Shown here piece after piece: positions 2,518 to 61,584 of a DNA stretch of 64,000 nt. The notes beneath the pieces were generated by a model. It made no database searches and was not told the DNA's origin. It saw only the letters and a program-made list of their open reading frames with translations. Location of the stretch: positions 117,807-181,806 of the forward strand of contig JAYQSH010000003.1 in the NCBI GenBank assembly GCA_038146805.1, written 5' to 3'. The DNA comes from a bacterium (GTDB lineage Bacteria > Cyanobacteriota > Vampirovibrionia > LMEP-6097). Position numbers and translations under genes: made by a program. Numbering within the stretch: the stretch's first letter is position 1; the number at the start of each line of letters is the position of its first letter.

Positions 2518-3240
2518 CTAAACTTCGTTATAACCTTCTGCAATCATCAAGACACGAAGTTTTTTTGTCGCTTCTCTAATCATGTGAGAAACACGTGAAG
2601 GTGAGACTCCAAGTTTTTCGGCAACTTCATTACCACTAGCATTTTTATAAAACCTAAGTTCAATTACTTTTTTCAAATTATCAGGTAGTTTAGAAACAGA
2701 CTTTTTTAAACTCTTTTTCATTGCTAAAAGCTCTAAGCGATCTGACTCATCAACTCCATTAGGATCACTAATACTAAAACCAGTATCTTCAGCCATTGAA
2801 TCAACAGACATGATTACTTCATAAACAGCAGCACGAGCATCTTCAGCAGTTTTAATCTCTGAAGAGACTTCAGCAGTTTGTTCTTTTGCTTGTGCGCCTT
2901 TAGCGTCAATAGAATCTTTGTCTAAAGCAACAACTTTTTTTACACCATACCAGCTTTGTCTTGAGCGCAATTCATCTTTCATTGCCCACTTTACAGACTG
3001 TGCTATATAACTTGAATTATATTCAACAGATTCTGAGTTTCTAGCTGTATCAATTAACTTATTTACAGCAATTAATCCAGTGTTCACAAGTTCGTCGTAA
3101 CTTAAAATTTTTCCAGTTTTACTGCCATACTCTTTTTTTGCAATCATTTCAACAATAGGCATAAACTCGGCAAGATCCTTACCTTTATTTAAAGTCTTAG
3201 AAGTGATTTTTAGAGATTTTATTTTATCTTCTTGAGTCAT
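2518..3240 (-). CDS. sigma-70 family sigma factor (divergent, group 3/FliA-like)
   Basis: Region 2-like YDELVNTGLIAVNKLID and region 4 HTH GNEVAEKLGVSPSRVSHMIREATKKLR. Confidence 0.7.
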   Translation of the reverse strand: MTQEDKIKSLKITSKTLNKGKDLAEFMPIVEMIAKKEYGSKTGKILSYDELVNTGLIAVNKLIDTARNSESVEYNSSYIAQSVKWAMKDELRSRQSWYGVKKVVALDKDSIDAKGAQAKEQTAEVSSEIKTAEDARAAVYEVIMSVDSMAEDTGFSISDPNGVDESDRLELLAMKKSLKKSVSKLPDNLKKVIELRFYKNASGNEVAEKLGVSPSRVSHMIREATKKLRVLMIAEGYNEV

Positions 3241-3411: not shown

Positions 3412-4155
3412 ATGAAAGCTATTATCTTTGCGGCTGGGCTATCGTCTCGACTTGGTGAACTTACAAAAGAACTGCCAAAATCATGTTTAGCAATTACAAA
3501 AAATCAAAATATGATTGAAAGAAATCTATTTTTGTTAATCAAAAATGGATTCACAGATATAACGATTATTACCGGTCACGCCAAAGAAGCTTTTGCAGAA
3601 ATTATTGCCAAACAAAAGATCAAAATCAATACTATCTATAACGAACTTTACATAGAAAGAAACAATATTTATACAGCTTACCTTTGCAAAGATATTTTAG
3701 ATGAAGATACCTTGATTTTAAATTCTGATTTAGTTTTAGAAGAAGAAATAATCAAAATTGCTCAAAAACAAATGCAAAGCTCAAAAGAAAGTTTTATGCT
3801 TATCGATGATTTCAATCAAGTTGATGAAGAATCAATGAAAGTTTATGTGGATGAAAATCAAAAAATCACACGCGTTAATAAAGCCCTTAATCTAGAACAA
3901 AGTCTGGGAGAGTATATCGGGGTCTTGCGGATATCCAATGAAGACAAGCCATGCTTTATTGAATCAATGCAAAGCATTTTAGACAAACAAGAATTTAATC
4001 TTTACTATGAAGATGCTATAGATAGAGCAAGTGCTAAAATGAATGTTCATGCAATTAGTACACAAGGTAAATTGTGGACAGAAATTGATACCTTAGAAGA
4101 TTTAGCAAAAGCTAGAGAACTAGCAAAAAATTTAGAAGCAGAGTTAAAAGTTTAA
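3412..4155 (+). CDS. sugar/alcohol-phosphate nucleotidyltransferase (LicC/NTP_transferase-like)
   Basis: N-terminal MKAIIFAAGLSSRLGELTKELPKSCL signature of the GT-A nucleotidyltransferase fold. Stop overlaps the next start (TAATG). Confidence 0.7.
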   Translation: MKAIIFAAGLSSRLGELTKELPKSCLAITKNQNMIERNLFLLIKNGFTDITIITGHAKEAFAEIIAKQKIKINTIYNELYIERNNIYTAYLCKDILDEDTLILNSDLVLEEEIIKIAQKQMQSSKESFMLIDDFNQVDEESMKVYVDENQKITRVNKALNLEQSLGEYIGVLRISNEDKPCFIESMQSILDKQEFNLYYEDAIDRASAKMNVHAISTQGKLWTEIDTLEDLAKARELAKNLEAELKV

Positions 4156-5189
4156 TGCAATCAATAGACATTCCAAACAAAATAAAAATTTGTGAAAACG
4201 CACAAGAACTTGAAGTCTATTTGAACAGTTTTTTTAGCAGTCATGAAAACGAAAATTTTTTATTTCAATATAGTGACTTTGGCAAAAGCATATTTGAAAA
4301 ACAAATTAAGCCACTGCTAAAAAATATAAAATTTAAAGAAATCAATTCTAGAGAAGGTGTTGAGCTTGATGAAAATATTGATTGGCTATTTAGTGTTGGT
4401 GCAGGTAGGACTTTAGACATCAGTAAAATGTCTGCCTATAAATCAAAAGCAAAATTAGCATGTTTACCAACTATGATTGCTCATGATGGAATTTGTTCAC
4501 CTGTTGCAGTTATAGACAACAAAAGCTCAGGCGCAATTGTACCTTCAGCACTTTTTATTGATCTAAGTATCATAAAAAATTCTCCTATCGAGCAAATTTA
4601 TGCTGGTGTGGGAGATTTGGTCGCAAACCTTTCTGCAATTGAAGATTGGTATTTAGCAAAAGAATTCAAAGCCGAAGAACTAGATGACTTCGCAATTATT
4701 CTCTCAAGAAGGGCAGCTCAAAGTATCATTGCCAAACTAGAAATAAATTTAGAAAACCAAGAACAAGATAGAAAAAGTTTTTTGACTAGCTCTGAATTTT
4801 TACATTCATATATCGAAAGTTTGGTATTGTCTGGAATTTCAATGAGTATCGCAGGAAGCTCTAGACCCTGTTCAGGAGCTGAGCATTTAATTTCGCACGC
4901 TATTGATGAGATCTATGGAGCAAATCAAAAAGCCTTACACGGTATTCAAGTTTTAGTTGCAACACTTTACTTAGAAAAACTAAGAGCAAAAGATTTATTG
5001 CTACAAACTACAATCACAGACCAAGAATCAAAATTAACTAATATTTTAAAAGCCTACAATATGCCTTCTAGTTTTGCAGATATTGATATTGAAGAACAAG
5101 ATTTAAAAAAAATCCTTGAAAAAGCACCCTCAACAAGACAAAATCGCTATACAGTTTTAGACCAACTCAATCAAAAAAAAGTTTTTTGA
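4155..5189 (+). CDS. sn-glycerol-1-phosphate dehydrogenase-like (EgsA/AraM family, iron-ADH superfamily)
   Basis: Motifs GAGRTLDISK, LPTMIAHDGICSPVA, AGVGDLVANLSAIEDWYLA and SGAEHLISHAID match the G1PDH/AraM metal and substrate motifs. Confidence 0.7.
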   Translation: MQSIDIPNKIKICENAQELEVYLNSFFSSHENENFLFQYSDFGKSIFEKQIKPLLKNIKFKEINSREGVELDENIDWLFSVGAGRTLDISKMSAYKSKAKLACLPTMIAHDGICSPVAVIDNKSSGAIVPSALFIDLSIIKNSPIEQIYAGVGDLVANLSAIEDWYLAKEFKAEELDDFAIILSRRAAQSIIAKLEINLENQEQDRKSFLTSSEFLHSYIESLVLSGISMSIAGSSRPCSGAEHLISHAIDEIYGANQKALHGIQVLVATLYLEKLRAKDLLLQTTITDQESKLTNILKAYNMPSSFADIDIEEQDLKKILEKAPSTRQNRYTVLDQLNQKKVF

Positions 5190-5228: not shown

Positions 5229-5837
5229 ATGCTCGGATATAGTGAAGAAAAAAGTATATATTTTTCTATACAAAACCATACTGGCTATGCCAAATTAAAA
5301 CATCCATTTGAATTTATTGATTTACAGAATTTTAGTCACCATGAGTTAGAGTCTTGTATTGAAACAGGATGCTTTACGGGAATTCCTCAGTTTAAATTTA
5401 TTGATTTCAAAAAAGGATTTAGTTTTGAACATAAACAATGTCATGCCGCTGAACACAAGACCTATAAGGCCTTTAAAAAGAATATTAGAAACTTAAAAAG
5501 CAAAACCCAATATGAAGATTTTAAATATTATATTCCAAGCCTTGAAGAAATAAAAAACACTAATAGCTTTTCTATATTCTGCGGTACTAGTTTCATCATT
5601 AGCTCCACACTCGCTACATTAACAATGGCTTTGCCAAATATACTGAAATATAAAAATCACGATATTTATTTTATGAGTTTTTGGATTTTATTTTCATTAT
5701 GTGAGTTTTACTTCTGCTCAAAAATTATTCAAAAAAAATATCTTAGCGAACCAAATCATATTCAAATTCTACTTGCACAAAAAGCTTTAAAGGAGGCACT
5801 AAATGGAAACAACAATAAACCAAATACTTGCAATTAG
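5229..5837 (+). CDS. hypothetical membrane protein, first gene of the T4SS-like operon
   Basis: Soluble N-half with a CHAAEHK motif (reminiscent of DUF1385, low certainty). Two C-terminal hydrophobic helices. Overlaps the next gene by 35 nt. Confidence 0.45.
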   Translation: MLGYSEEKSIYFSIQNHTGYAKLKHPFEFIDLQNFSHHELESCIETGCFTGIPQFKFIDFKKGFSFEHKQCHAAEHKTYKAFKKNIRNLKSKTQYEDFKYYIPSLEEIKNTNSFSIFCGTSFIISSTLATLTMALPNILKYKNHDIYFMSFWILFSLCEFYFCSKIIQKKYLSEPNHIQILLAQKALKEALNGNNNKPNTCN

Positions 5838-6255
5838 CATCACAATCACACAAATATTAGTCATTATTATGGCAATCACACTACCAATATGGGCGTATAA
5901 AATCATTGACAAATGTTTTATCAATAAACATGAAGCACTAAAAACCCAATACACACATACAAATACCCATACACAAATTATTGCATCACTAGGAACAACA
6001 ACAGCAGGCGTATTTATAATTCAAATTTTGCCGTTAATTTTTAGCATTATCGGTGAAGTCGGGGGGGATTTTGGTATGTCATCTATTTACGGAGAATTCA
6101 CTCCGGGAGCAATAGGCATTAGTAATTATGCTGATAATTTTTATGCTCTTACAGCTCAGCTAAGTGATATGCTGCAACAAGTTGCTCCAATGGCTGCAGT
6201 AGGGTTGGGAGGGTTTAATTTAATCAATAAACTCTCAAGAGGATTACCTGCTTAG
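5803..6255 (+). CDS. VirB2/TrbC-like pilin candidate
   Basis: 150 aa with a long N-terminal hydrophobic leader plus two further hydrophobic segments. Strong SD AGGAGG 6 nt before the ATG. Sits immediately upstream of the VirB3/B4-like gene. Confidence 0.4.
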   Translation: METTINQILAISITITQILVIIMAITLPIWAYKIIDKCFINKHEALKTQYTHTNTHTQIIASLGTTTAGVFIIQILPLIFSIIGEVGGDFGMSSIYGEFTPGAIGISNYADNFYALTAQLSDMLQQVAPMAAVGLGGFNLINKLSRGLPA

Positions 6256-8726
6256 ATGATTAAAGTCTATAAGCACTTTAATACTCCACTTGAACTCTTT
6301 TGGGGATTGAGCTTCAGTAAAATAATACGGATAATATTATTATCTACGGGGATAATAATATTATTTAATTACTGCAAACTAAGTCCCCAAAACCCATTAT
6401 CACTATTTATATTCATTCCAGCTGTATTCATTCTAGCTATTATTATCAAATCAGAAGATGACTTTTACACAAATTTAGTTTTACATCCATTTCAAGATCA
6501 TATATTTTTACTAAATAAAAAATCAAAAACATATGCAAACATCAAAACTACTATAAATAAAATTAAAGACTGTACTCTTTACAAAAATGATAAAAGCATA
6601 TGCCAAATAATTAAAATTGATTATGGCATTAGTATTCAAAACCTAAACAATGAAGAACAAGAAAGTATTTTAGATTTATGGTCAAGCTTACTAAGTGAGT
6701 ATAATAAAATAACTAATTACGATGATTACTTTGCTAATATATTACTCAAAGAGGAACTCACCTTGCATACAAGTATTAAGCAGGGCTCTAATGAAACCAT
6801 TTACTACATTGGCATTCATCAAGATGCTTTAAATGAAGATAAATCAATTATAGAAAGATTTATTGATCTAGTAAAAAACAAATTAGCATTAACAGACGCA
6901 CAAGACTATAACCATAAAAAAGAATTAATATTACTTAAAGAAAAAGTTGATTTTTGCAAGAGTTACTTAAATAAAATGCAAATCAACTGTAAATCACTTG
7001 ATGAATATGAAATTAAAAAACTTTTTGAAAATCAAGTTGGCTTTTTTTTTCAAAAAAAGGCTTACTGATTGATAAAGGAAATCATTTAGAACTCAAAGAG
7101 AATGGCAAAAAAACATTTTTAAAAAATTATTGTCTTGAAACTATCCCTGATAGTGGAGATTTGAATTTTTGGCTAAAAGATTTTTTCTTAAGATTCAAAA
7201 CAAACACTTTTATTACAATTAAATTTGAATATCGAGATGCCTATAAAGACATTAAAAAGGTAGAACAAAAAGCTAAATACCTAAATGAATTTAAAAAAAC
7301 CAAAAAAGCAATCAATAAAAGTATCATCCAAGAAAGCCAAAGCCTTTCAAAGACTTTAATAGAAAGACCCTATTCATTTAACTTAAGTATAGACTTGACA
7401 ATAAAATGCAATACTATTGATGACTTAAAAGAAATTGATCGATTAATAACTCGTCCGCATAAAAATGCAGTATGGAACAAACAAAGCCGTAAACAAATAA
7501 AAGGGCTCAAAGCAAATTTACTAGGCTCTAGAATTAATGAGTCACACAAAAAACACTATAGCGACTTAGCTTTAGCACAAGCATGTTTTTGTTTTTATGC
7601 CAATAACTTTCCCACAGATAGTCTTTTTAAGATCGGTAAATCTCTCACTGACAATAATGATATTTTTTTTAATGAAGCAAACAAAAAACTACACAAAACA
7701 AGATCAATAAACTTTATTGGCGATTCTGGATCAGGTAAATCAATGGCAGCAAAATTTATGATTAGCCAAAGACTAAAACACAGTATTCACAATCATTTTG
7801 TAATTATTGACAATAGTTCAGATGGCTGGACAGACTTTTGTCGTATTCACCAAGGTGAAATTATTGACCTTAATCAAGCTTTAGAACATAGGGTATATTT
7901 CAATCCATTACAAATTAACACTGAACTTGAACAACAAGTAAAAAACTTGAAAATACAAGAACTTTTATTATTTTTTAGAGCACTTAGCAATAATGACGAA
8001 CTTACTTTAGCAGAAATTGATTTTTTAACAAAAAGTTTAAATGCATTTTTTGATAAACAAAAGAACGCAAAACTTTCTGATTTATATTTGTTTTGGTCAA
8101 CATGGCACGATAAAGAGCTGACACAAAAATGGCAAATCTTAATTTCACCATATTGCAAGATCACAAATGGAGCATATGCATATCTTTTAGATGGAAGCCC
8201 TAGTAAATTTGACAAACAACTAACATTATTTCAATTTAGTAAAATCAATCAAGATTCTAATTTCTCTGATCTATGTATGTATCTTATTAACCAAGAGCTA
8301 CAAGTTAAAGCACAAGATCTTAATAAGAAAATCACTTTAGTTATTGATGAAGCCTGGAAAATTTTTCAAAGTAAAAAATCAAAAGATTTTTTTTCTTACT
8401 ATGCAAGAGCAGGTCGAGCTCTTGAATGTGCATTATGGACTATTAGCCAAAAACCTACAGACCTAGGACGTGAAATATATTCAAACGCTAGTAATAATAT
8501 AAGTTTTCATTTAAAAGAAAAAAAAGATCAAGAACAACTCAAAGCTATTGCTGGTTTTGCAGAACATGAATTAAAACTTTTTACAAATAGCTTATTAAAA
8601 ACAACAGGTTGCTGCCTTATAAAATCAAACTTTGGTACTGATTTAGTAGAAGTACAAGTAGCAAAAGAAGATTTATTAATATGTTCATCAGACAAAGATT
8701 GTTTAATGCAAAAAAAAGGACTTTGA
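6256..8726 (+). CDS. virB4: VirB3/VirB4-like T4SS ATPase, split into 6256..7068 and 7029..8726 by a -1 frame change at the T9-C-A7 tract (823 aa if joined)
   Basis: N-terminus has two TM helices (VirB3-like). Walker A FIGDSGSGKS, Walker B LVIDEAWKIF and TISQKPTDL are typical of VirB4/TrbE/TraC. The downstream frame is open from 7029 and encodes GLLIDKGNHL...FLKNYCLETIPDSGDLNFWL. The joined length fits VirB4. Confidence 0.75.
7053..7059 (+). promoter_or_regulatory. candidate -1 ribosomal frameshift heptamer A_AAA_AAG
   Basis: AAA and AAG are zero-frame codons (7054-7059). The zero frame stops two codons later (TGA at 7066). The -1 frame continues GGC TTA CTG into the ATPase body. May instead be a homopolymer indel. 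Confidence 0.3.
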
Positions 8727-8727
8727 A

Positions 8728-9243
8728 ATGTTGAATAGGTGGTTAGTTCAGCCAGGAAAAGTAAAAAAACTACAAAGCTTGTTGGCTTTAAGTTTTATTA
8801 CCAATTTATTTTTAATTGCACAAAGCTTCAAGCAAACTCATAAAGAAAAACTAATTCAAAACAGCATTCAGCAAAAAGATACAACAAAAATTAACAACCA
8901 GGAGATTTTAAATTTCACAAAGCAATATTTAAATTATTTTTTTGATACCGGATTAATCGCAGAAGAATTTTTAATCAAACATACTAACCAAGACTTGTTT
9001 ACACAACAAATAAAGCCTCAAATCATGATTAGAAACTCTAAAAACTACAAAAGTATATTTGATATAAACGATTCATACATAGAGTTTCTTGATCAAGAAA
9101 AATACAGAGTGATTTTAATAGGTACAGAAAATTTCAAAGACAAAAAATTTATTACACGTGAAATAACGATAGTAATCGAGATACTCTACTCAAAAGAAAA
9201 CTTTGAAGTGATTTCAATACCAAGATTTGAGGTTACAACATGA
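8728..9243 (+). CDS. bitopic membrane protein, VirB8-like by position and topology
   Basis: One N-terminal TM (LLALSFITNLFLIAQSF) plus a ~130-aa periplasmic domain. Starts 2 nt after the ATPase stop. Confidence 0.4.
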   Translation: MLNRWLVQPGKVKKLQSLLALSFITNLFLIAQSFKQTHKEKLIQNSIQQKDTTKINNQEILNFTKQYLNYFFDTGLIAEEFLIKHTNQDLFTQQIKPQIMIRNSKNYKSIFDINDSYIEFLDQEKYRVILIGTENFKDKKFITREITIVIEILYSKENFEVISIPRFEVTT

Positions 9244-10520
9244 ACTTTTGTTTACTAGCCTTAATATTTTTGATCAGCAATTTTCATAGTGTAAATGCTT
9301 TCTTTTTTGATAACAACAAAGAGTACATTGAAGATACAGCAAAATTTCAAAATATAAATTTAAATACAAAAATCTCCCCCCTAAAAGATCTTAGAGTTGA
9401 ATCTAATAAAATTCTTTTTTGGGATGACTTAGAAAAGCAACATGAACAAATAGCCTTGAGTAACGAAGAAGCCTTTAAAAACTTTTCTTATAACAAAATA
9501 ACTGGAATGTCTAATGGACTCATTGATGTCACATTTCAAGTACGCAAAGGAGTCAAATTAGCTATTGAAGAAACCTTTGGAGGCTATGCCGAATACCAAA
9601 AACGTAAAAGTGCTGAAGAGATTGTTAATTCAAGTTTTGAAAATAGGAAGAAGCTCAATAAAACTTTATTTTTTAAAGAAGAAGAATTTGGCGAAAAAAA
9701 TATCTTTGATCTATTTAACATTTTTTCCAATAACATCAATAAAAAAACATCTAGTTACAAAATCATTAACTCCATAATAAATACAACAATTATTGACAAG
9801 CTAAGAAAAACAACAAGATACTTTGCAATGCTTTTACTGAGTGCATTTCTTATCATTAAGGTTTTACAACAAATCAAAAAAAATGTAAGTGTTGAAAATA
9901 TATTTAGTCAAAATATTCTTCAAGTCATATCAATCATAATTTTCATAAAGTTTTCTAGCGTTTTTTTTGATATACATCTAAATCTTTTTAATAACGCAAG
10001 CCTAACTTTTTTGAGTTATTTAGAAGAATATAATCTAATAAATCATATGCACACAAGCGCAGTCTGGAATGAATTTAGTAAGCAAGCAGGATATTTTCCC
10101 AGCTTAGCAATTGCTATATTAGACTTAATCTCACAAATTTTCATTGGCTTATTTTATTTGATTTTAATTGCCTATGTGAGTTTTAGCATTGTTCTTTTTC
10201 CTTTTTGGGTGCTTCCCACTATTTTTTCGAGTTTGAAAAATCATTTTTCAAATAACTATTTAAAATGGATACAAGCAAACTTAGCTCTTATAGCAAGTCC
10301 AATACTTATCATTATTTTTGATATACTCGCTCAACAGCTTCAAGGTTATTCTTTATTTTTGTGTTTACTAGCAAAAACCCTGAGTTTTTATGGCTGTCCC
10401 TTGGTTATGCTTTTTATTTTTTTTAAAATAAACAACAAATCTAATGGCGATTATGAGAAAATCAATGAAAACAACCTTTTAATAGATGAATTAAAAGATC
10501 TTATTGCAAATAAACAATGA
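9240..10520 (+). CDS. polytopic membrane protein, VirB6/TrbL-like
   Basis: Signal peptide, ~170-aa periplasmic region, then 5-6 TM helices. ATGA overlap with the upstream gene. Confidence 0.45.
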   Translation: MNFCLLALIFLISNFHSVNAFFFDNNKEYIEDTAKFQNINLNTKISPLKDLRVESNKILFWDDLEKQHEQIALSNEEAFKNFSYNKITGMSNGLIDVTFQVRKGVKLAIEETFGGYAEYQKRKSAEEIVNSSFENRKKLNKTLFFKEEEFGEKNIFDLFNIFSNNINKKTSSYKIINSIINTTIIDKLRKTTRYFAMLLLSAFLIIKVLQQIKKNVSVENIFSQNILQVISIIIFIKFSSVFFDIHLNLFNNASLTFLSYLEEYNLINHMHTSAVWNEFSKQAGYFPSLAIAILDLISQIFIGLFYLILIAYVSFSIVLFPFWVLPTIFSSLKNHFSNNYLKWIQANLALIASPILIIIFDILAQQLQGYSLFLCLLAKTLSFYGCPLVMLFIFFKINNKSNGDYEKINENNLLIDELKDLIANKQ

Positions 10521-11515
10521 TCATAAATGGCAATATACTAGATTTAATTTTAGTAGCTTTAATTAGTTTTATAGCTAGCTTTATTTTGCACAATTATTTA
10601 TTTGAAAAAGAAAAAAAACACTTTGTCGAAAAACACAAAAAACTTATTGAAAAATTTTTAGCAATAAATATTAGTCACCTTCATGATTCAGCAAACTTAT
10701 TCAATCTCATCAAAAACAATGCAGAAGAACAAAAAATTATAAATTTTGCAACTGGCGCAGCCTATCACTACAGATCAATTTTCAACTCACTCAAAAAAAC
10801 TTTTTTTGTTATACAAAATCAGAATTTTAAAAATTTAAACGAAGATACAATCTCACAATTAATTGCCAAAGAAGAAATTGACCTAAAGGACTTAATTAAT
10901 ATAGAACTTTTTCAACTTGGAAATTTCTCAGAGATAGAAATAGAAGATCATACTAAATCTAACTATGCCTTTATATACGGTAATTTTGATTTATTAACAA
11001 AGGTTGTTTTAAACCTTGTTGAAAATGCTTTAAAATACTCAAATACAAAAATCAAAATCATTCTCACAGAAATAAACAATCGATACATTCTAAAGATTAT
11101 GTCTTTTGGAAAATCAATTTCAGAAGAAATAAAAACAAAAATTAATAATCAAATCTACAAAGATCTTGAAGGGCACGGCTTAAGTAGTTTGGTAGAAATC
11201 ATGAATTACCATAATGCCAATATTGAAATTTCATCAATTCAAGATGAGGCGAGCTCAATAAATTTAGAATTTGAAAAATTTATTGCCACTAGAAAAACAC
11301 CAATAATAAAAAAAGCTTTCAACAACAAAAAAAATAAACAATTTGTTTGGCTACCAATAGTTGGTTTAATAGCATTAATATTTTTCTTAAAGCAAATCAT
11401 CTCGATTTTACAAAAACTAATCAAAAATACCATAAGTCAAAATAGAGATTTCCTCCGACTTGAGCAAATGATTGATAAAGAAACAGAAAACTTAAATTTA
11501 AAACTTGATTTATAG
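10517..11515 (+). CDS. histidine-kinase-like ATPase (HATPase_c) membrane protein
   Basis: N-terminal TM, H-box-like INISHLHDSANL, N-box NLVENALKYS, G-box EGHGLSSLVEIM, and an extra TM after the ATPase domain. ATGA overlap with the VirB6-like gene. Confidence 0.6.
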   Translation: MIINGNILDLILVALISFIASFILHNYLFEKEKKHFVEKHKKLIEKFLAINISHLHDSANLFNLIKNNAEEQKIINFATGAAYHYRSIFNSLKKTFFVIQNQNFKNLNEDTISQLIAKEEIDLKDLINIELFQLGNFSEIEIEDHTKSNYAFIYGNFDLLTKVVLNLVENALKYSNTKIKIILTEINNRYILKIMSFGKSISEEIKTKINNQIYKDLEGHGLSSLVEIMNYHNANIEISSIQDEASSINLEFEKFIATRKTPIIKKAFNNKKNKQFVWLPIVGLIALIFFLKQIISILQKLIKNTISQNRDFLRLEQMIDKETENLNLKLDL

Positions 11516-16364: not shown

Positions 16365-16703
16365 ATGTCAAATCAAGAAGAAATATTAGATATAAATGAT
16401 GCAATTAAAGAAGAAACTCAAGAAGATGAAATTGTTGAATTGAGTGATGAGGCTCGTGTCGCTTTTGCTTTGTATTTGGATGTAATGAAAAACGGTAAAG
16501 TAACAAAATACGGTACAAAAATTCCTCCATTAAATACAGCAAAAATCTCAAGACTAGCTGAGGTAAACCCTAAACAAGTATCTAAAAGTTTTGATCGTTT
16601 AAGAACTAAGGGCTTTATTTCTAACGATGATAATGGTGAGCTATTTATTCCTGATGTACTAGAATTTGAAGATTGGTTAAAAACCGAAGGCGCAGCAGTT
16701 TAA
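16365..16703 (+). CDS. small winged-helix DNA-binding protein with an acidic N-terminus
   Basis: HTH-like ISRLAEVNPKQVSKSFDRLRTKGFIS. Confidence 0.5.
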   Translation: MSNQEEILDINDAIKEETQEDEIVELSDEARVAFALYLDVMKNGKVTKYGTKIPPLNTAKISRLAEVNPKQVSKSFDRLRTKGFISNDDNGELFIPDVLEFEDWLKTEGAAV

Positions 16704-16788
16704 CTGAAAACACCTAATTTTAAGAAAAATAATTTTTATTTTTTAAGTACTTAACAGATCCTTAACTTGCATTTAGTAATTAAGATCT

Positions 16789-17067
16789 ATGGCAGTTTAC
16801 GAATTTATTCCATATATTAATTCAGCAGAAAGGTTAGCTGATTCAGAATCATTGATCGCGCAAACACAAGCAGACAATGCTTTTGCAGAACAATTATTGC
16901 AACAAGCAATTGCCGGAGTCGGCAATGTTCAAGCGGCAAGACACTTGCAAGCAACAGTTAGACAATTACTTGGTAACGCAAGAGTGAACCAACAATTTTG
17001 GATGGAAGTTGCTAAGGGTGATAAAGACCAATACAAAAAAGCCGTAGAGTTAATTAAAGTAAGCTAA
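16789..17067 (+). CDS. small helical protein, paralog of 39995..40447
   Basis: Shares LQQAI-G-G-V and R-LLG--RV--Q-W--EV blocks with the 150-aa protein. Confidence 0.6.
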   Translation: MAVYEFIPYINSAERLADSESLIAQTQADNAFAEQLLQQAIAGVGNVQAARHLQATVRQLLGNARVNQQFWMEVAKGDKDQYKKAVELIKVS

Positions 17068-17078
17068 TAGGGGAAAAT

Positions 17079-17555
17079 ATGTTTCATTCAAGTTCAACAG
17101 CACCAGAACCAAGTTATCTAAATTGGGATTTACAACAAGATTATATAACTCGTACCACAACACAGTTATCAGCAAGTAACTTTCAAGATATTTTTAATAT
17201 GACCAAAAGAGTTGGTGAAATCGAAGTTAAAATGAGTGATTTAAAATTCAGAGCTGGCGGCATCGGGGGTATGCTGGGTATCGCAGCTGGTGCACTCGGC
17301 GGACCGATTGGCAGTGTGATTGGTTTTGGAGTAGGTAGATCACTTGGAAACTTTGTAGGTTCAGCACTCGCAAATAAATATTACGGCGAAGAAAAAAATA
17401 CTATCAATCAACATTTACACAACGCGCAAATGAGAGATACTCAACTTAAATATCAAGTTGGTCAATTAAACGCTCTTGGACAAATGATTACAACTTTAAG
17501 ACAAAATAGAATTAATGATGATAAGAAAATCATCCAAGATATGCTAGTCCTATAA
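17079..17555 (+). CDS. glycine-zipper membrane protein
   Basis: GGIGGMLGIAAGALGGPIGSVIGFGVGRSLGNFVGSALA. SD AGGGGA precedes the ATG. Starts 11 nt after the upstream gene. Confidence 0.6.
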   Translation: MFHSSSTAPEPSYLNWDLQQDYITRTTTQLSASNFQDIFNMTKRVGEIEVKMSDLKFRAGGIGGMLGIAAGALGGPIGSVIGFGVGRSLGNFVGSALANKYYGEEKNTINQHLHNAQMRDTQLKYQVGQLNALGQMITTLRQNRINDDKKIIQDMLVL

Positions 17556-35059: not shown

Positions 35060-36373
35060 GGCTCTACCTCAAATTTGTGTAAAATAGGGAACTAAAAAAT
35101 AAGTGAAACTCTTTTATTAATTGAGATACAGAAGGAGTTTCACTTATGAAAAGTATAGTTCAAAATTAATAAATTTACCAGGGTATGTCATTACAAATGA
35201 TTCAATTGATGGATATCGGCTCAATTTTGACGTAAAAATCAAGCAAAAGCATGGTTTTTGCCCTAAATGTAGGGCTAAAACTAAGACTGTCTATGAAAAG
35301 AATTAGAAAAATAAACCATAACTTTTGGGATCATAGACCCTGCAAATTAAAAGTTTTGGTTAGAAAATTTCGCTGCAAAAACTGTAAAACAAGATTTTGG
35401 GAACAACTACCAGGTCTTAAAAAATACGCAAGAAGAACAGAAGCTTTTAAAAGACAAATAGCAAAGGAAGCTCTTGCTGGTGTTAATAATAAATCAGTTT
35501 CTAGAAAATATAATGTTGGGCAAGCAACTGTTCAAAGAGATGTTAATCACTACACTGACCTTGAACTAAGAAAAAAATCTGATGTACTTGCTCCTAGAAT
35601 CCTTGGCATCGATGAACACTTCTTCACGAAGAAGCAAGGCTACGTTACTACACTCTGTGACCTTCAAAGAAGAAAAGTATTTGATATTGTTCAAGGACGC
35701 TCGGAACAAGCCCTAGAAGGCTATCTGAGACGATTGAAATATAGAGATAGAACTGATTACGTAGTAATGGATCTTTCTTCAACTTACCGCTCAATTGTTC
35801 AAAAATACTTCCCTAATGCTCAAATAATTACTGATAGATTTCATGTAATTAGATTAGTAATTTTAAGATTTCTTGCAACCTGGAAACTCTTAGACTCCAA
35901 AGGAAGAGACAACAGAGGCTTACTCTCACTCTTTAGAAGACACCCTTCTAAATTAACTGAAGAACAACACAAAAACTTCACCGCTATCTTCAGTCAAAAC
36001 CTGGTCTAGAAGCTTTGTATAAGTTTAAAAATAGATTTGTAAAGCTCTTGAATTTAAAAGAAATGAAGTTTAGATATGCAAGGAAAGTGATTGGCTATTT
36101 TAATACTCTTACTCACTTTTTAAACAAGTCAAAATTCAAGCCTCTGATGTCATTAGCAAAGACTTTAGAGAATTGGCAGGAGGAGATATTGAGGATGATG
36201 AGATATACTAAATCCAACGGAATTACAGAAGGATTTCACAACAAAATGAAGCGAATCATCAGAATCGCTTACGGATTTAGAAACTTTAAAAATTACAGAC
36301 AGAGGGTTTTGTTACAATGCGGATAAACGGAAGAGTTTCACTTCCTAAAATTACACAAAATTGGTGTACATCC
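35060..36373 (+). mobile_element. ISL3-family insertion sequence, ~1.3 kb, decayed
   Basis: Imperfect terminal IRs GGCTCTACCTCAAATTTGTGTAAAAT and GGATGTACACCAATTTTGTGTAATTT (19/26 identical). Flanking direct repeat GATAAAATTGG on both sides (35051-35061 and 36374-36384), consistent with an ~8-bp target duplication. Confidence 0.8.
35121..36326 (+). pseudogene. ISL3-family transposase broken into three ORFs by two single-base frame changes
   Basis: Zinc-finger CPKCRAKTKTVYEK / RKFRCKNCKTRF, DDE region ILGIDEHFF...VVMDLS...ITDRFHVIRL, C-terminal GITEGFHNKMKRIIRIAYGFRNF. Frame changes fall in A-runs at ~35297-35301 and ~35971-35976. Confidence 0.8.
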
Positions 36374-36482: not shown

Positions 36483-36559
36483 TGGCGGAGACGAAGGGAC
36501 TCGAACCCTCGGCCCCCTGCGTGACAGACAGGTGCTCTAACCAGCTGAGCTACGCCTCC
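36483..36559 (-). tRNA. tRNA-Asp (GTC)
   Basis: Reverse complement reads GGAGGCG-TA-GCTC-AGCTGGTTA-GAGC-A-CCTGT-CTGTCAC-GCAGG-GGGCC-GAGGG-TTCGAGT-CCCTT-CGTCTCC-G-CCA. Confidence 0.9.
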
Positions 36560-41830: not shown

Positions 41831-41937
41831 TGAGACACTGCGGACCGTGTTATTTTTGTCTCACTTGTTATCTAGCACTCCACGCTGGCTAACAAGATAA
41901 GAGGTGGGACAAAAATAACACGGTCCGCAGTGTCTCA
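41831..41937. repeat. 107-bp foldback (MITE-like) built from two inverted copies of the 33-bp repeat
   Basis: TGAGACACTGCGGACCGTGTTATTTTTGTCTCA (41831-41863) pairs with its reverse complement at 41905-41937 (32/33). The 41-bp spacer contains its own IR CTTGTTA/TAACAAG. Confidence 0.85.
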
Positions 41938-44900
41938 AAAAGCTCCTATAATAACTAAAGTGAAATACCTGAAAACTATTTGTTTTACAGCATTTTTTTT
42001 GAGCGGCTTAGCCTCAATAGTTTATGAACTTACATGGATTCGCCTGCTTAGAAACATTTTTGGCTCAGATAGTCTTGCTTTTAGTTCCTTACTTACAATC
42101 TTTATTGGCGGTATCGCGACAGGCACATTTTTGTCAGGAAAATTTATCAAAAAATTTTTTAGTCTACCCTCTCGAGCATCAGAAGCACTAATTTTTGCAA
42201 TCGACAAAGCAAAGAATTTCTTTTTTATTTTGATATATGGCTTAATTGAACTTTTAGTTGGTATCTATGCACTCATAACACCCTTATTATTAAGCGAAAA
42301 TACACTTGGCTCAACTTGGATATTCTTATCAAAAGTTTTAAATGACAATATCATTTTACTTAGCTTAAGCAAATTTTTAATTGCCGGTTTTGTCCTGATA
42401 TTACCCACACTATTACTCGGACTCAGTTATCCGATTTTAGTAGAACTTGTAACAAGCAACGAAAACAAAACAGACAACAAATACCGACTTGGCAGTAGCA
42501 ATCTTTATGCAACCAACACACTCGGATCTATTTTTGGATCAATAATTGGTGGCTTTTTATTAATCCCGCACTTTGGACTCAAAACAAGCATTCTCATTGC
42601 TACCTTAATAAATTTCTTTATTGGTTTTTTGATATTTGTTTTACACAAAACAAACATACAAATGTTTTCAAATTTTAAAATAAAAGAAGCAATAAACTTT
42701 TTAATTACAAATGCAAAAACTGTTAAATTAGAAAACCAAAACAAACTCAAAAAATCGTTTTCATTTTGGCTTTTAGTTAGCATTGGCGTAATCTTAGGCT
42801 TTAGTAACTTAGGGCTTGAGGTGATTTGGAACAAGATCTTTGCACTTATAATCGGTTCATCTGTATATTCAGCAACTATTGTTATTTCTGTAGTGCTTGC
42901 AGGAATTAGCTTTGGCGCTTATAGCCTTAATTACTTTAGCAAAAAAATCAAAAACGAAAATATCGATATTTTTTTATGTGCGATAATTTTTGCGTTTTCT
43001 CTTTTGATTTTTGCAAGTAGTTTTTTACTAAATGCATGCCCATGGTTTTTTGTGAAAGTACATAAAATTTTCACAGCACTTGCTCAAGACAATTCATGGA
43101 TCTTTACCAATATAACTAAATATCTAACAGTCAGTTTAATAATTTTCCCAGTAACATTTCTTGAAGGATTAGCTTATGCAATCGTTCTTTACAAAGCATC
43201 AGAAATCACAAAAGAAAAAAACGATCCTGTAGGCTCAAGAATCGCTGTGATTTCATACTGGAACACAATCGGTGCCATTTTAGGTTCTTTTAGTGCAGGC
43301 TTTATATTGATACCCTTCTTTTCACAATTTGGCAGTGGCATTACAAACTCTATAAGATTTATTCTTGCTCTTGCTTTTATCACCACAATTTTAAGTTTGA
43401 TTAGTACAGGCAAAACAAAGCTAAAACATCTGTTATTGCTAATAGCAATAGCTATCACAGCGATATATTGTGTACCAACATTAGCAAAAAACACTTTGAA
43501 TTCAGGAACGGAAATTTATAAAGCAACAAAATTTAAAGACATCTCAAAAAAAAAATTCCTAGATGAAAACGAAGAAATTCTTTTTTATAAAGAAGGTCTA
43601 AACAGTATAGTAACGGTAGTCAAAGACGATGCAGCAAATGCAATTTTTTTAAAAAACAATGGAAAAATCGAAGCTGGAATCCCACTGCGTCCTGAATACC
43701 CCTCAAAAGCAGATACAATTACCCAAGATCTACTAGGAATTTTGCCCATCTTATTAAAGCCTGATAGTAAAAATGCTTTAGTGGTTGGCATGGGCTCAGG
43801 TAAAACAGTTGCCAGTCTTGCTATCAGTGGCAAAGAAAACAATTTAGAAGAAATAACAGTTTGCGAAATAGAAAGGGAAATCTTCAATGCCTCAAAAGAA
43901 TTTTTCGTAAAAAGTTTTCCAATAAAAGTTAACAAAAAAAACATCGATGCTCGTAATTTTTTGAATACAACTAAAGAAAGTTTTGACTTAATCATCTCTC
44001 AGCCTTCTGACCCTTGGATATCAGGAGCTCTATTTACCAAAGAATTTTGGTACAAAGTCAAATCACGACTAAGCGCACAGGGTATTTTTCTGCAGTGGCT
44101 ACAATTATACTCATTAGATGAAGAACACCTTGAAATTGCGCTCAGAACTTTCATTGAGAGTTTTCCACAAAGCTATATTTTCAGACCACCATTTTCAGCA
44201 GAACTTATTTTGGTAGGAACTGACAATCTGAATTTTTTCAACATCAATAAAACAGAAGAAAATATTTTCAAAAAAGATACATATAATGCTTTGTCACACA
44301 TTGGTATCAATGACAGTGCTGACCTTTTTGCAAATCTTGTTTTAACACCAAAAGATTTAAATGCACTTAAAAACAAAGCTGGGATTAACACAGACGACAA
44401 TATGTCTTTAGAGTTACATACATCAAAAAACATCGACAATTTTTTTGAAAGTATCAAAACAAATAATCAATACCTAAAAAAATTAGCCCAGCCAAATAAT
44501 TTATACAACTTTTTCAGCTCAATAGATGAAATAAATTTTTTAACCAAACTCAGTGTTGCTCATAACAAATTCCACAAAAAGAACAATCAAGAGATTTCCT
44601 CTTTCATCATCAACAAAATACATCAAGAAAACCCAAGCCCCATGAGCTTTCTAGCCCTTTATGAAATTTACAAATCTGATAATGAATTTGAAAAAGCAGA
44701 CTCAATAATTTATGAAGCTGCGAAAACTTATTCTGATTCCATCTCAAAAATCAATAACCAAACTTTTATTTTCAAAAACTTACATAACAATTTCCATTCT
44801 GATTTTGATCAAACTCTAGCAATGTATAAAATCTTTTTAAACGCACAAGACCGTGAAAACGCGAGCAAAGCCGAGCTTTTATTAAGAAAACAACTTGTAG

Positions 44901-45535
44901 AAAAAAAGAAAGAGTTGCGCAAAATTTATCTTGCGGAAATTTTTTACGAAAAAGCAAAATCAAACTTTGCCAACCTTACAGCAAACCCTGATTACAAAAC
45001 ACTTGAAGAAGTTTTAGAAGATTTAAAAAGAGCTCGCAAAAACAACCCTCAAAATTATTTATACCTTAAAGAACAAGCAAAAGTTTATTTATACAAAGCA
45101 AAATTATCACCGAATGATGCTGACAAATATAAAGATGATGCATTAAATTTTCTAGAAGCGGCAAACAAAATTTATGCATTAGATTATGAAACCCATGAAA
45201 TGCTGGCAGATATATACTATGAAACCCTACCAAAATCAGAGATTAAATTCATCAGTAAAAGTTCAGATAGTGATTTTGAAAATAAATTACAAAAAACCAT
45301 CAACTTTCTAAAAAACACTTTAGACTTAAATCAAAATTCAATTAAAGCTAATTATTATATGGCTGATATCCAATACAAAATGGGCAACCTCAAACTATGT
45401 ATCAAACATTTGGATAAACTCACAAAAATTTGTGAAGATCAAAACCTTTGTCTGAGTGAATTAAACAACGACAATAAACTTGCCTATGAAACTCTAAACA
45501 GTAAAATCAATAACCTAACTAATTTTGCAAAATAG
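41930..45535 (+). CDS. fused polytopic membrane / spermidine-synthase-like / TPR-like protein (1201 aa; GTG start at 41930 or 41960)
   Basis: N-terminal FFLSGLASIVYELTWIRLL and more than 10 TM helices. SpeE-like core VVGMGSGKT...IISQPSDPW. Helical-repeat C-terminus. Confidence 0.7.
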   Translation: MSQKAPIITKVKYLKTICFTAFFLSGLASIVYELTWIRLLRNIFGSDSLAFSSLLTIFIGGIATGTFLSGKFIKKFFSLPSRASEALIFAIDKAKNFFFILIYGLIELLVGIYALITPLLLSENTLGSTWIFLSKVLNDNIILLSLSKFLIAGFVLILPTLLLGLSYPILVELVTSNENKTDNKYRLGSSNLYATNTLGSIFGSIIGGFLLIPHFGLKTSILIATLINFFIGFLIFVLHKTNIQMFSNFKIKEAINFLITNAKTVKLENQNKLKKSFSFWLLVSIGVILGFSNLGLEVIWNKIFALIIGSSVYSATIVISVVLAGISFGAYSLNYFSKKIKNENIDIFLCAIIFAFSLLIFASSFLLNACPWFFVKVHKIFTALAQDNSWIFTNITKYLTVSLIIFPVTFLEGLAYAIVLYKASEITKEKNDPVGSRIAVISYWNTIGAILGSFSAGFILIPFFSQFGSGITNSIRFILALAFITTILSLISTGKTKLKHLLLLIAIAITAIYCVPTLAKNTLNSGTEIYKATKFKDISKKKFLDENEEILFYKEGLNSIVTVVKDDAANAIFLKNNGKIEAGIPLRPEYPSKADTITQDLLGILPILLKPDSKNALVVGMGSGKTVASLAISGKENNLEEITVCEIEREIFNASKEFFVKSFPIKVNKKNIDARNFLNTTKESFDLIISQPSDPWISGALFTKEFWYKVKSRLSAQGIFLQWLQLYSLDEEHLEIALRTFIESFPQSYIFRPPFSAELILVGTDNLNFFNINKTEENIFKKDTYNALSHIGINDSADLFANLVLTPKDLNALKNKAGINTDDNMSLELHTSKNIDNFFESIKTNNQYLKKLAQPNNLYNFFSSIDEINFLTKLSVAHNKFHKKNNQEISSFIINKIHQENPSPMSFLALYEIYKSDNEFEKADSIIYEAAKTYSDSISKINNQTFIFKNLHNNFHSDFDQTLAMYKIFLNAQDRENASKAELLLRKQLVEKKKELRKIYLAEIFYEKAKSNFANLTANPDYKTLEEVLEDLKRARKNNPQNYLYLKEQAKVYLYKAKLSPNDADKYKDDALNFLEAANKIYALDYETHEMLADIYYETLPKSEIKFISKSSDSDFENKLQKTINFLKNTLDLNQNSIKANYYMADIQYKMGNLKLCIKHLDKLTKICEDQNLCLSELNNDNKLAYETLNSKINNLTNFAK

Positions 45536-59328: not shown

Positions 59329-59772
59329 TTATGCGCCTTCCTTCTCAAGCTCAGCAACGACTTCTTGCTTAAACTCTTCAACTCTATCTTTAAAAGTCCC
59401 AACTTGAACTTCTGACATCCATAAACCTTTAAGTCTATTTTTTGGTACAGATTTTTTAATCATAGGAGGTCTTACACCCAATAACCTTTCTCTACAAAAT
59501 TTATTTCCTTCTCTAAAGTGACAATCACCAATCTGGCAACCCATCGCTATGACACCGTCTGCACCGGCATTGAAAGCCGACTCAATCATACGAGGTTGAA
59601 TCATTCCAGAACAAGGCACTTGTACAACATAGGCATTATTAACACCATCAAGATCTCTGCCATGTTGCCCAGAAAGATGACCATCAAGATTAACACTTCT
59701 CTCGCAAGCAATAACCATAACTTTGACGTTGTCGGTATTTTTTGTTTCTTTAGTTATTTCTTCAGTAGACAT
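59329..59772 (-). CDS. MvhD/FlpD-like hydrogenase iron-sulfur subunit family protein
   Basis: VMVIACERS...VVQVPCSGMIQPRMIESAFNAGADGVIAMGCQIGDCHFREGN matches the methyl-viologen-reducing hydrogenase delta subunit signature. Confidence 0.75.
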   Translation of the reverse strand: MSTEEITKETKNTDNVKVMVIACERSVNLDGHLSGQHGRDLDGVNNAYVVQVPCSGMIQPRMIESAFNAGADGVIAMGCQIGDCHFREGNKFCRERLLGVRPPMIKKSVPKNRLKGLWMSEVQVGTFKDRVEEFKQEVVAELEKEGA

Positions 59773-59787
59773 AAATTTTCCTTTTTA

Positions 59788-60936
59788 CTAAGCAGCAACA
59801 GCCTCGTCTTGTTCTAAAGCGATTCTAATATCATCCATCACGACTGGCGACATTGTATGTGGTAGTTCAATAGCATCAAAATTACATGCACCAACACACA
59901 AACCACACTCAGCACAACGTTCATCAATAACGATAGCTAGTTCTTTAAACTTAGAACCATCGTTTCTTGGTGCCATATAAATTGCTTCATAAGGACAATC
60001 AACAGAGCAAAGTTTGCAACCAACACATTTATTTGAGTTTACACTTGCAGGCTCATGATCTTTTGACTCAACTAAGCTCGGTAAAATAGTGGCAATAACA
60101 ACACCAGCAACAACCATTAACCAAGTTAAAGGATAACCTATGATTTTCATGACTGGGAAAATCCATAAATAGAACCAATCAATATCAAAATATGTTGGTT
60201 GCACAGTGAAATCTGCTTCAGGACCTGAAATCGCTGGGAACATCGCTGAAAAAACTAAAACAATACCAGCAAGTAAACAGCCAATAGCCCAAGTGACATT
60301 GACTAAAGGTCTTGAGATTCTCATATAATGTACCCATAGCATTACTAGCAATGACAAAGAAATTCCAGCATGAATAAAAAATGACATTGACATTGTCAAG
60401 TTTGAAATCACATTATCATTTATAAATGCATGAGAAAGAGCATCACCAATAAAAGGAACAGCGGCTAAAAACTCAGAAACCATTGTGACAATAATAAAAG
60501 ACCTTTCATCCCAAACCAAAATATAGCCAGATATACCAATCGCTAACATCATAATGGTAAGTGCGATTCCAGAATACCAAGCAATAATTCTATACTCTCT
60601 GTATCTGTCAGTGAAATAAACACGCAAAGCATGTAACCAAACAGCAAGCATCATGCCATCAGCAGCGTATCTATGCAAACCTCTAATAATATCTCCAAAA
60701 GGAATTTTTTGAGTAATGTACTCAACACTTTGGTAAGCCGCTTCAAGTGTACAAGTGTAATAAGCAAACAACAACAAACCAGACAAAAAGAGCATCCACA
60801 TAAAAAAGTTTGGAATAGCTCCGTGGTAATAAAGTATATTTTGCTCTGAGCCAAAAACCTTATTCAAAAGATCTTCTAGCTTCAATAGAGCTTTTTGTCC
60901 TTCTCTTACTATCTTAGTTAATACAGCCGATATCAT
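59788..60936 (-). CDS. cytochrome b (four His ligands, PEWY-like region) fused to a C-terminal 2x[4Fe-4S] ferredoxin domain
   Basis: RGLHRYAADGMMLAVWLHALRVYF (His spacing 14), GYILVWDE, FFIHAGISLSLLVMLWVHY (His spacing 14), DWFYLWIFP, then CVGCKLCSVDCP and CAECGLCVGACN. Confidence 0.75.
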   Translation of the reverse strand: MISAVLTKIVREGQKALLKLEDLLNKVFGSEQNILYYHGAIPNFFMWMLFLSGLLLFAYYTCTLEAAYQSVEYITQKIPFGDIIRGLHRYAADGMMLAVWLHALRVYFTDRYREYRIIAWYSGIALTIMMLAIGISGYILVWDERSFIIVTMVSEFLAAVPFIGDALSHAFINDNVISNLTMSMSFFIHAGISLSLLVMLWVHYMRISRPLVNVTWAIGCLLAGIVLVFSAMFPAISGPEADFTVQPTYFDIDWFYLWIFPVMKIIGYPLTWLMVVAGVVIATILPSLVESKDHEPASVNSNKCVGCKLCSVDCPYEAIYMAPRNDGSKFKELAIVIDERCAECGLCVGACNFDAIELPHTMSPVVMDDIRIALEQDEAVAA

Positions 60937-60955
60937 AAAAATTCTCCAGTATAAA

Positions 60956-61291
60956 TTACTTTGCCTGCGTTACCTCATAACCCTCACTTGGTCTTTTGTT
61001 TGCAACTACTATCGCAAAGAAAGTTGAAATTAAAGAAAAACCTAAACACAAACCCCAAAGCAAAGTAGAAATTCTATCTTGTTTACTTGGATCAATTTCA
61101 ATGCCAAATAAACCTGAAATCGCATTTATATACTTTAAGTTTTGCAAGGTACCTTCATCGAAATAACTAGTATCAGTACCAATCAACTCAAAGTAGTTCA
61201 TCAAGAAAAACATGAAACCAAAAAATGCCAAATTAAATAAAGCGACAAATAATGGAATATAAAATGATTTGATATCTTCTTTTGTAAACAT
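60956..61291 (-). CDS. small membrane protein (3 TM)
   Basis: Hydrophobic ORF tightly packed within the operon. Confidence 0.5.
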   Translation of the reverse strand: MFTKEDIKSFYIPLFVALFNLAFFGFMFFLMNYFELIGTDTSYFDEGTLQNLKYINAISGLFGIEIDPSKQDRISTLLWGLCLGFSLISTFFAIVVANKRPSEGYEVTQAK

Positions 61292-61294
61292 AAA

Positions 61295-61582: not shown

Positions 61583-61584
61583 AG

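Follow-up and report, generated by a model that had tools for sequence, protein, structure and literature searches.

To our knowledge, nearly all VirB4-based machines of bacteria are carried on mobile elements. The few described exceptions, the ComB system of Helicobacter pylori, the archaeal Ced/Ted systems and the type IV secretion systems (T4SSs) of Patescibacteria, each represent a new use of conjugation machinery. Here we describe an operon of six genes, A to F, that adds a case in the sister lineage of the photosynthetic cyanobacteria. It lies in a 64,000-nucleotide stretch of a bacterial genome, hereafter the window (GenBank assembly GCA_038146805.1, contig JAYQSH010000003.1, forward-strand positions 117,807 to 181,806; GTDB lineage Cyanobacteriota, Vampirovibrionia, LMEP-6097). 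Gene C encodes a VirB4-class ATPase, while genes D and E encode putative VirB8- and VirB6-like membrane proteins, and we consider it quite likely that the cassette as a whole is a repurposed inner-membrane module derived from a T4SS. Chromosomal, repurposed T4SS derivatives are already a known kind; what is new here is the host, the apparent pairing of a core of monoderm type with a diderm cell, and a set of three partner proteins, an unusual combination that includes no outer-membrane part. A literature search for a T4SS-like cassette of Melainabacteria or Caenarcaniphilales returned no description, only the unrelated T-type T4SS of Vampirovibrio.

ComB is a chromosomal, non-conjugative system for DNA uptake that belongs to mating-pair-formation (MPF) class MPF_T; VirB4 is its sole ATPase, and it dispenses with the coupling protein (T4CP), VirB11 and relaxase while retaining ComB7/9/10 as its outer-membrane core as well as a homologue of VirB2. 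The cassette shares with ComB a chromosomal location and a VirB4 that is the only ATPase of T4SS type, but differs in being without the outer-membrane core. The archaeal Ced/Ted systems are likewise chromosomal, repurposed T4SSs, whose core combines a VirB4-like ATPase with a VirB6-like polytopic protein and with small membrane proteins (PMC9905601), and relaxase homologues are not recognisable in archaeal genomes (PMC9905601). This likeness is one of parts list, sequence similarity not being expected, and it is offset by the demonstrated VirB2-like pilin and pilus of Ced/Ted, by the lack of a reported VirB8-like protein and by their single-membrane archaeal hosts (PMC9905601).

In Patescibacteria (candidate phyla radiation, CPR), T4SSs are chromosomal, related to class MPF_FATA, usually without a relaxase nearby and presumed to be repurposed (PMC12102498). 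They resemble the cassette in being chromosomal and widespread within one lineage, in having a VirB4 related to the monoderm type, to which that of the cassette also appears closest, and in carrying VirB3-, VirB6- and VirB8-like accessory genes, for which the cassette has candidates, a likeness of features rather than of two directly compared VirB4 clades. They differ in several respects: the VirB3-like part is fused to VirB4 here and shows no such fusion there; the present host is a diderm, and no TrsD, VirB1 or VirB2-like genes were detected in the cassette; and the cassette has as partners protein B together with one DUF1385-like and one kinase-like protein. The translocon of the Gram-positive plasmid pCF10 offers a four-part inner-membrane core, PrgH (VirB6), PrgI (VirB3), PrgJ (VirB4) and PrgL (VirB8), for comparison. 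In a panel of 35 T4SS proteins PrgH was the best match for E, and PrgL was among the top matches for D and recurred among its structural matches. However, pCF10 is a conjugative plasmid that also encodes the T4CP PcfC, the relaxase PcfG, the cell-wall hydrolase PrgK and adhesins, none of which is present here, and our host possesses an outer membrane. Nor does the locus look like a conjugative element of monoderms, given a host with BamA, MlaE and LpxC, a chromosomal syntenic site and no mobile-element genes.

An earlier note on this stretch, made from the sequence alone, had suggested a link to the cyanobacterial VirB4 clade, MPF_C. The reference locus of that class, alr7199-alr7213 of Nostoc pCC7120alpha, shares with the cassette a VirB4 (alr7206) and a host that, taken broadly, is of the same phylum (Cyanobacteriota); it differs in being plasmid-borne and in having a MobV relaxase, a T4CP and VirB10. 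Gene C aligned with alr7206 at a BLASTP E value of 3.2, and profiles of A to F found nothing significant in the MPF_C gene set (alr7204-alr7212). Membership in MPF_C is ruled out by this lack of similarity in both the ATPase and its partners, and the suggested link had to be given up. The highest scores of the ATPase are those against VirB4s of monoderm type.

The assignment of gene C to VirB4 is supported at several levels. Its sequence contains the motifs GDSGSGKS, VIDEAWK and TISQKPTD, and Walker A, Walker B (DEAW) and SQKP are invariant among 16 members of the gene C family. Pfam AAA_10 (8.7e-12) and P-loop_TraG (5e-14) match, and the best NCBIfam model is VirB4_plasma, for the VirB4 of a Mycoplasma integrative and conjugative element (4.6e-21, residues 22-738), with a score far below the equivalog cut-off. 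An AlphaFold2 model built with 16 family members as input (mean predicted local distance difference test score, pLDDT, of 78) was compared with the PDB using Foldseek, and ranks 1 to 18 were all VirB4 structures. The best of these was TrwK of R388 (E 1e-24, roughly 830-860 aligned columns, template modelling (TM) score about 0.55-0.59), the alignment including the N-terminal domain, and the C-terminal domain of Thermoanaerobacter VirB4 was also among the 18. HerA appeared only from rank 19, with a partial match (1e-10) of high root-mean-square deviation. In a PDB sequence search HerA was the best match, a weak one (E 0.007), and PADLOC gave weak matches of mad8 and HerA to the C-terminal domain. 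The earlier note, which had recognised a VirB4-class ATPase from its motifs, named a HerA- or FtsK-like enzyme outside VirB4 as the finding that would speak against it; the Foldseek ranking points the other way.

The N-terminus of gene C contains two predicted membrane helices, at 18-36 and 48-66, which were found in a hydrophobicity scan and are helical in the model. This is the topology of a VirB3 fused to VirB4, and the N-terminus may be called VirB3-like in that sense; of the earlier description of a VirB3-like N-terminus with two transmembrane segments, the two helices stand, and the resemblance to VirB3 in sequence is weak (Pfam VirB3, E 0.27). Modelling and motifs together indicate that gene C is a genuine VirB4 with intact catalytic motifs and its own membrane anchor. 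Its profile scored best in the panel against PrgJ of pCF10 (2e-7), as opposed to 0.05 for R388 TrwK, and the nearest metagenome sequences outside the family are of monoderm type, the one that was checked (L041) belonging to the Firmicutes CD1110 VirB4 family. Plasmid VirB4s, namely F-type TraC, Bacteroidetes TraG and a Saccharolobus plasmid ATPase, are 21-24% identical to gene C over the C-terminal half. The scores against PrgJ, the Mycoplasma model, AAA_10 and the metagenome sequences suggest that gene C may be closest to monoderm-type VirB4s.

Gene D would supply the VirB8 of the complex. The protein begins with a single long membrane helix, which a disordered linker joins to an NTF2-like domain of three helices on a four-stranded sheet. 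Whereas a single-sequence search returned two near-identical proteins only, an exhaustive HMMER search gave 30 homologues (the family comprises 29 clusters among 1.84 billion representative proteins), from which an AlphaFold2 model with a pLDDT of 88 was obtained. Its best Foldseek match is an IcmL-like T4SS protein of Legionella (5cnl, E 4e-4, TM score 0.62-0.65); CagV, PrgL and Rickettsia VirB8 also match, interleaved with unrelated NTF2 folds. Pfam VirB8 found no match in gene D, and the best match of its profile in PDB sequences was a non-significant one (E 0.14) to 4ec6, which is TraM of pIP501, a VirB8-like protein (PMC3548508). Because fold, topology and a place beside virB4 coincide, it is reasonable to regard gene D as VirB8-like on these three grounds, not by membership in a sequence family. 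The bitopic VirB8 that the earlier note had expected in this 171-residue protein is thereby borne out, with one helix, an NTF2 fold and VirB8-family proteins as best structural matches.

Gene E, in turn, is a candidate VirB6-like channel subunit by virtue of its topology, in which a signal peptide precedes a conserved domain of about 170 residues in the periplasm and this in turn is followed by five or six membrane helices. The predicted arrangement is compatible with the polytopic VirB6 that had been proposed for this 426-residue protein, although matches to known members are weak. The top two in the T4SS panel are the VirB6 homologues PrgH and TrwI, at 3-6 bits only; TrbL/VirB6 is the top Pfam family over 18 orthologues, through one member only (E 0.055); and the profile had no match at E 1 or better in PDB sequences. 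The orthologue alignment defines a periplasmic motif, NKI.G..G.IDVT.QV..GV..A.K.T..GY.EYQRRK..EE.LN.

The most conserved protein of the cassette is the product of gene B, with a mean column identity of 55% across 21 orthologues. A hydrophobicity scan detects three hydrophobic segments, two of them strong and the third weak, and the C-terminus carries a conserved SRGLPA that is followed in most orthologues by a short basic tail. By the positive-inside rule we infer that the N-terminus is probably outside and the C-terminus inside, unlike the usual arrangement of a pilin. No Pfam pilin, VirB2 or VirB3 model matched, and its profile found nothing in PDB sequences at E 1 or better. The pilin label that the 150-residue protein had received thus lacks support from family, profile or PDB searches, and the predicted topology is not pilin-like. 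The possibility that B is a VirB2-like copy of the gene E N-terminus, by analogy with CedA1 and CedA, was rejected (hhalign probability 1.8%).

Two further partners, A and F, always occupy the first and last positions of the cassette. Gene A appears to encode a membrane protein that resembles DUF1385 (YqhQ) in shortened form: of 23 orthologues, 14 have a match to Pfam DUF1385 (PF07136; best E 3.3e-5), all below the gathering score (best 21.3 bits against a cut-off of 22.1), and the copy in the window has no DUF1385 match in Pfam. The protein is about 100 residues shorter than the DUF1385 family, its orthologues have two C-terminal hydrophobic helices, and its profile found no relative at E 1 or better in PDB sequences. 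H72, A74, E75, H76 and C118 are invariant; they belong to an FCG(T/S) motif and to an H-x-A-E-H motif, the DUF1385 family having a conserved motif of HGAEH type. M16 peptidases bind zinc through an inverted pattern, HxxEH, and a metal-dependent enzyme with an inverted-zincin-like pattern would be our guess for gene A. The cassette would provide a first genomic context for the uncharacterised DUF1385 family.

Gene F looks like a membrane histidine-kinase-like protein, which the earlier note did not identify. It matches Pfam HATPase_c at 2.5e-8 and NCBIfam sensor kinases at 4e-7 and weaker, far below their cut-offs, and is ordered as a membrane helix, an H-box-like SHLHDxxN, HATPase_c, a second membrane helix and a variable tail. 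In an alignment of 17 orthologues H56, D57 and N60 are invariant, and an N-box, LNLVENALKY, and GHGL are present, whereas the usual DxGxG box reads S.G..I. No HisKA family matched, and no response regulator was found in the cassette, one occurring nearby only in locus L005. The tail past the second membrane helix is highly variable (40-300 residues) and ends in a conserved acidic E.LGLDL.L, which looks like a docking or recognition motif. A search of a large protein database with a joined alignment of A, B, D and E gave no match.

The cassette is rare and is maintained as a unit. The gene C family had 18 matches in a search of 5.8 billion proteins, 21 cassette loci were recovered when a single genome for each GTDB species was scanned, metagenomes contributed four more, and no relative was found in a collection of viral contigs. 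In total about 30 distinct loci were obtained, and wherever a locus is long enough for the gene order to be read, it is A-B-C-D-E-F, down to 25-30% protein identity. An arrangement of the same six genes in the same order throughout is far beyond chance, and the synteny in related genomes that the earlier note had asked about is thus established. Most loci share an upstream flank of a sigma factor, NTP_transferase and Fe-ADH_2 and a downstream flank of cmk, leuA and bamA. Divergent members occupy other sites, between fliPQR/rplC and cofH in L045 and next to two-component genes in L005, so that the loci span at least three different chromosomal contexts. The view of an operon embedded among housekeeping genes applies both to the cmk-leuA-bamA site of most loci and to the sites of the divergent ones.

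Where record labels of the loci are informative, they name Candidatus Melainabacteria, Caenarcaniphilales/Caenarcanales or Cyanobacteriota. A further ten records bear the label Gammaproteobacteria or Proteobacteria, and seven of these share the flanking synteny of the cassette; the remaining three (L013 upstream side, L017 and L022) lay outside the synteny comparison. Since the flanks are those found in Melainabacteria-labelled genomes, the seven labels, among L008, L009, L011-L013, L016 and L019, are probably wrong. The divergence of C and that of E are closely correlated (rho 0.92), and both correlate with that of LeuA at rho 0.37-0.45, the pairs not being independent. We think it probable that the cassette is the repurposed inner-membrane half of a T4SS, inherited vertically on the chromosome in a lineage of Melainabacteria/Caenarcaniphilales type. 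To judge by these relatives, the organism of the window, which contains no rRNA, is probably Caenarcaniphilales-like.

The layout of the operon and of other features of the window is given in Table 1. The junctions between its open reading frames (ORFs) are as first described, and gene B is preceded by a Shine-Dalgarno sequence, AAGGAGG, 8 nt upstream of its start. The count of seven coupled ORFs becomes six genes, the two ATPase ORFs being one gene. In the window gene C is split between ORFs 6256-7068 and 7161-8726 in different frames, which the earlier note overlooked; the frames join within GGC-T9-C-A7-GG (7039-7060), and one T added to the run yields a product of 823 residues. Five independent assemblies that are 98-99.9% identical (L006, L029, L030, L031 and L036) have T7 and an intact gene C of 822 residues, and L030 differs from the window over 4982 nt by one mismatch and the 2-nt indel in the T-run. 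The break is accordingly confined to this assembly or strain, and the T9 run could have arisen by assembly error, by a recent null mutation or by homopolymer slippage or phase variation. Within the operon the G+C content at third codon positions (GC3, 0.19-0.28) is host-like, equalling that of polA and bamA, and the overall G+C content (27.9%) is slightly lower than in the flanks. A promoter and terminator scan found fewer promoter-like sites than in shuffled sequences, and Rfam identified two tRNAs only in the window, with no match inside the operon.

Table 1. Positions of the operon genes and of other features of the window (numbering of the window).
Feature	Position	Strand	Length	Remark
Gene A	5229-5837	+	202 aa	first gene of the operon
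Gene B	5803-6255	+	150 aa	35-nt overlap with A
Gene C	6256-8726	+	about 822 aa when intact	0-nt gap after B
T9 homopolymer	7042-7050	+		disrupts the gene C frame; T7 in relatives
Gene D	8728-9243	+	171 aa	1-nt gap after C
Gene E	9240-10520	+	426 aa	ATGA overlap with D
Gene F	10517-11515	+	332 aa	ATGA overlap with E
Sigma-70/ECF-like factor	2518-3240	-		divergent, upstream
NTP_transferase and Fe-ADH_2	3412-5189	+		overlapping; end 40 nt before gene A
Three small ORFs	16365-17555	+	112, 92 and 158 aa	after bamA
ISL3-family transposase fragment	35251-36009	+	252 aa	24 kb from the operon
tRNA-Asp	36483-36559	-		adjoins the ISL3 fragment
Transporter/spermidine-synthase-like fusion	41930-45535	+	1201 aa	
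Cytochrome b-like gene group	59329-63087	-		beside FlpD-like gene

The surroundings of the operon were scanned with Pfam, using ORFs of at least 120 aa in the window and the 10-kb flanks of relatives, and within this compass no relaxase, coupling protein (VirD4/TcpA), VirB9, VirB10, VirB11, VirB1 or integrase was found. Outer-membrane core families (VirB7/VirB9/VirB10) were likewise without a match in the window and the relatives' flanks, and the reported absence of conjugation and outer-membrane-core genes is correct over this range. VirB11 occurs in MPF_T and several other diderm classes and is absent from F-type systems. The cell is nevertheless a diderm, as had been said, for BamA/Omp85 and MlaE are encoded in the window and LpxC in a syntenic relative. 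Housekeeping genes of the window include secA, a trpE-like gene, sigma-70, mlaE, acs, glyA, dus, holB and purD, together with clpB, ftsH, alaS, aroA, hemE, cytochrome b genes, bamA, NDH-1 subunits and polA.

A conserved chromosomal module at a housekeeping site, without conjugation genes nearby, suggests a non-conjugative, repurposed role. We envisage that C, D and E would form an inner-membrane complex as in R388 and Gram-positive systems, in which VirB4, as a hexamer, would sit on a platform that the VirB6-like E and the VirB8-like D build in the membrane. ATP use by VirB4 would then move a macromolecule, or a subunit embedded in the membrane, across or out of the inner membrane. Protein B might be a structural subunit of the platform or the unit that VirB4 extracts; A, whose gene is translationally coupled to that of B and which may for that reason act on B, could process or assemble it; and F could sense or regulate. 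VirB4 is the only T4SS-type ATPase of the cassette, the HATPase_c of gene F having a kinase-type fold. With this ATPase as the sole one, and with relaxase, T4CP and VirB11 missing nearby, the parts list is nearer to DNA-import derivatives (ComB, Ced/Ted) than to conjugation systems. We therefore favour, as an interpretation of the parts present, a non-conjugative transfer, in the form of DNA uptake or exchange or of an interaction with a partner or host as in Patescibacteria, over plasmid transfer; DNA import would be the foremost single guess, but one that we hold with rather low confidence. The fuller proposal, to which we give somewhat short of an even chance, is an undescribed class of repurposed T4SS, in which a monoderm-type VirB3/4-VirB6-VirB8 machine, fixed in the core genome of a diderm lineage (Caenarcaniphilales-type Melainabacteria), works with three partners never seen in a T4SS. 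Such a machine would need no outer-membrane channel of its own and would serve to import or exchange DNA or to interact with a partner cell. Whatever is moved, the cassette offers a compact, well-delimited system for studying the minimal functional unit of a T4SS and the recruitment of such machines by their hosts.

Several points weigh against the interpretation as a repurposed T4SS module. Gene B, as far as its sequence tells, fits no known T4SS component, and neither the kinase-like nor the DUF1385-like partner belongs to the known parts of a T4SS. The VirB6 label of gene E is drawn from topology and very weak scores, while unrelated NTF2 proteins reach Foldseek scores much like those of the VirB8-family matches of gene D (E 4e-4). 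In the window the ATPase gene carries a frameshift, and the hosts are uncultured. An inner-membrane complex alone cannot reach the outside in a diderm, and no outer-membrane partner was found in the window or the flanks; either another envelope system is used, the missing parts are elsewhere or the machine acts at the inner membrane only. VirD4, relaxase and VirB9/10 may also reside at other loci, as in the scattered T4SS of Rickettsia.

The last two of these points lead to the alternatives that survive best. The operon might be one locus of a complete but scattered T4SS, with the T4CP, the outer-membrane core and perhaps relaxase or effectors encoded elsewhere, that secretes across both membranes. 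T4SS genes are dispersed in Rickettsia, a diderm needs an outer-membrane conduit that is not found near the operon, and T4CP genes often lie far from virB4 (PMC12102498). We nonetheless hold this to be unlikely, since none of the roughly 30 loci, in at least three contexts, has an additional T4SS gene beside the cassette, which behaves as a self-contained six-gene unit, and since the ATPase appears to be of the monoderm type, known systems of which lack a VirB7/9/10 core.

Alternatively, a T4SS-derived machine could act within its own envelope, extracting, inserting or polymerising B or remodelling the envelope under the control of F, without any transfer between cells. VirB4 is credited with dislodging pilin subunits from the membrane, and this role, the missing outer-membrane component, the strong conservation of B and its translational coupling to A, the obligate presence of a sensor-kinase-like protein and a neighbourhood rich in envelope genes (BamA and AsmA/DUF748-like) would all accord with such a function. 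On the other hand, this neighbourhood is not kept in divergent members and B has no pilin signature; we know of no precedent for a T4SS confined to the envelope, and we regard this alternative, too, as improbable.

Decay is a far weaker explanation. A remnant of an integrated conjugative element without current function would account for the frameshifted ATPase, the failure to find relaxase, T4CP and integrase nearby and the slightly low G+C content, and an ISL3 fragment is present in the window, though 24 kb off; but relatives at 25-55% protein identity have all six genes intact and in unchanged order, with invariant catalytic motifs, most loci share one site, GC3 is housekeeping-like and the ATPase is intact in five near-identical assemblies, so that a remnant is highly improbable. 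A HerA/FtsK-type module, serving in anti-phage defence or as a DNA-repair translocase with membrane partners, is suggested by the weak HerA and mad8 matches and is just as remote, because the full-length structure matches VirB4 far better than it matches HerA, the full-length NCBIfam match is a VirB4 model, D has a VirB8 fold and the five partners have no PADLOC match, where known HerA-type systems combine a HAS-barrel ATPase with partners such as Sir2, DUF4297 or NurA; a defence system was rejected on the last of these grounds and on the weaker, partial structural match to HerA.

Besides the cassette itself, several features of the region deserve mention. The NTP_transferase and Fe-ADH_2 (glycerol-1-phosphate-dehydrogenase-like) genes upstream of gene A may be co-transcribed with the operon in the window; most relatives have both genes beside the cassette as well, though L005 and L045 do not. 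In some relatives two extra small ORFs (100 and 59 aa; 8451-8904 in L003) that are absent from the window intervene between Fe-ADH_2 and gene A. The divergent sigma-70/ECF-like (extracytoplasmic function) factor further upstream, a possible regulator of the region, is found in many relatives at 64-83% identity, which is higher than for the cassette proteins. On the downstream side, the three small ORFs after bamA have no Pfam match, and ORFs of the same sizes are conserved in L001, L002, L046 and L047.

The ISL3-family transposase fragment is the sole mobile-element gene observed in the window. Elsewhere, a major-facilitator transporter region is joined to a spermidine-synthase-like domain in a single protein, an unusual fusion. 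Near the far end of the window, two cytochrome b-like genes, one of them fused to a 4Fe-4S dicluster domain, stand beside a FlpD-like (hydrogenase delta subunit) gene, and together they make up a respiratory module that is unusual for a non-photosynthetic relative of the cyanobacteria.

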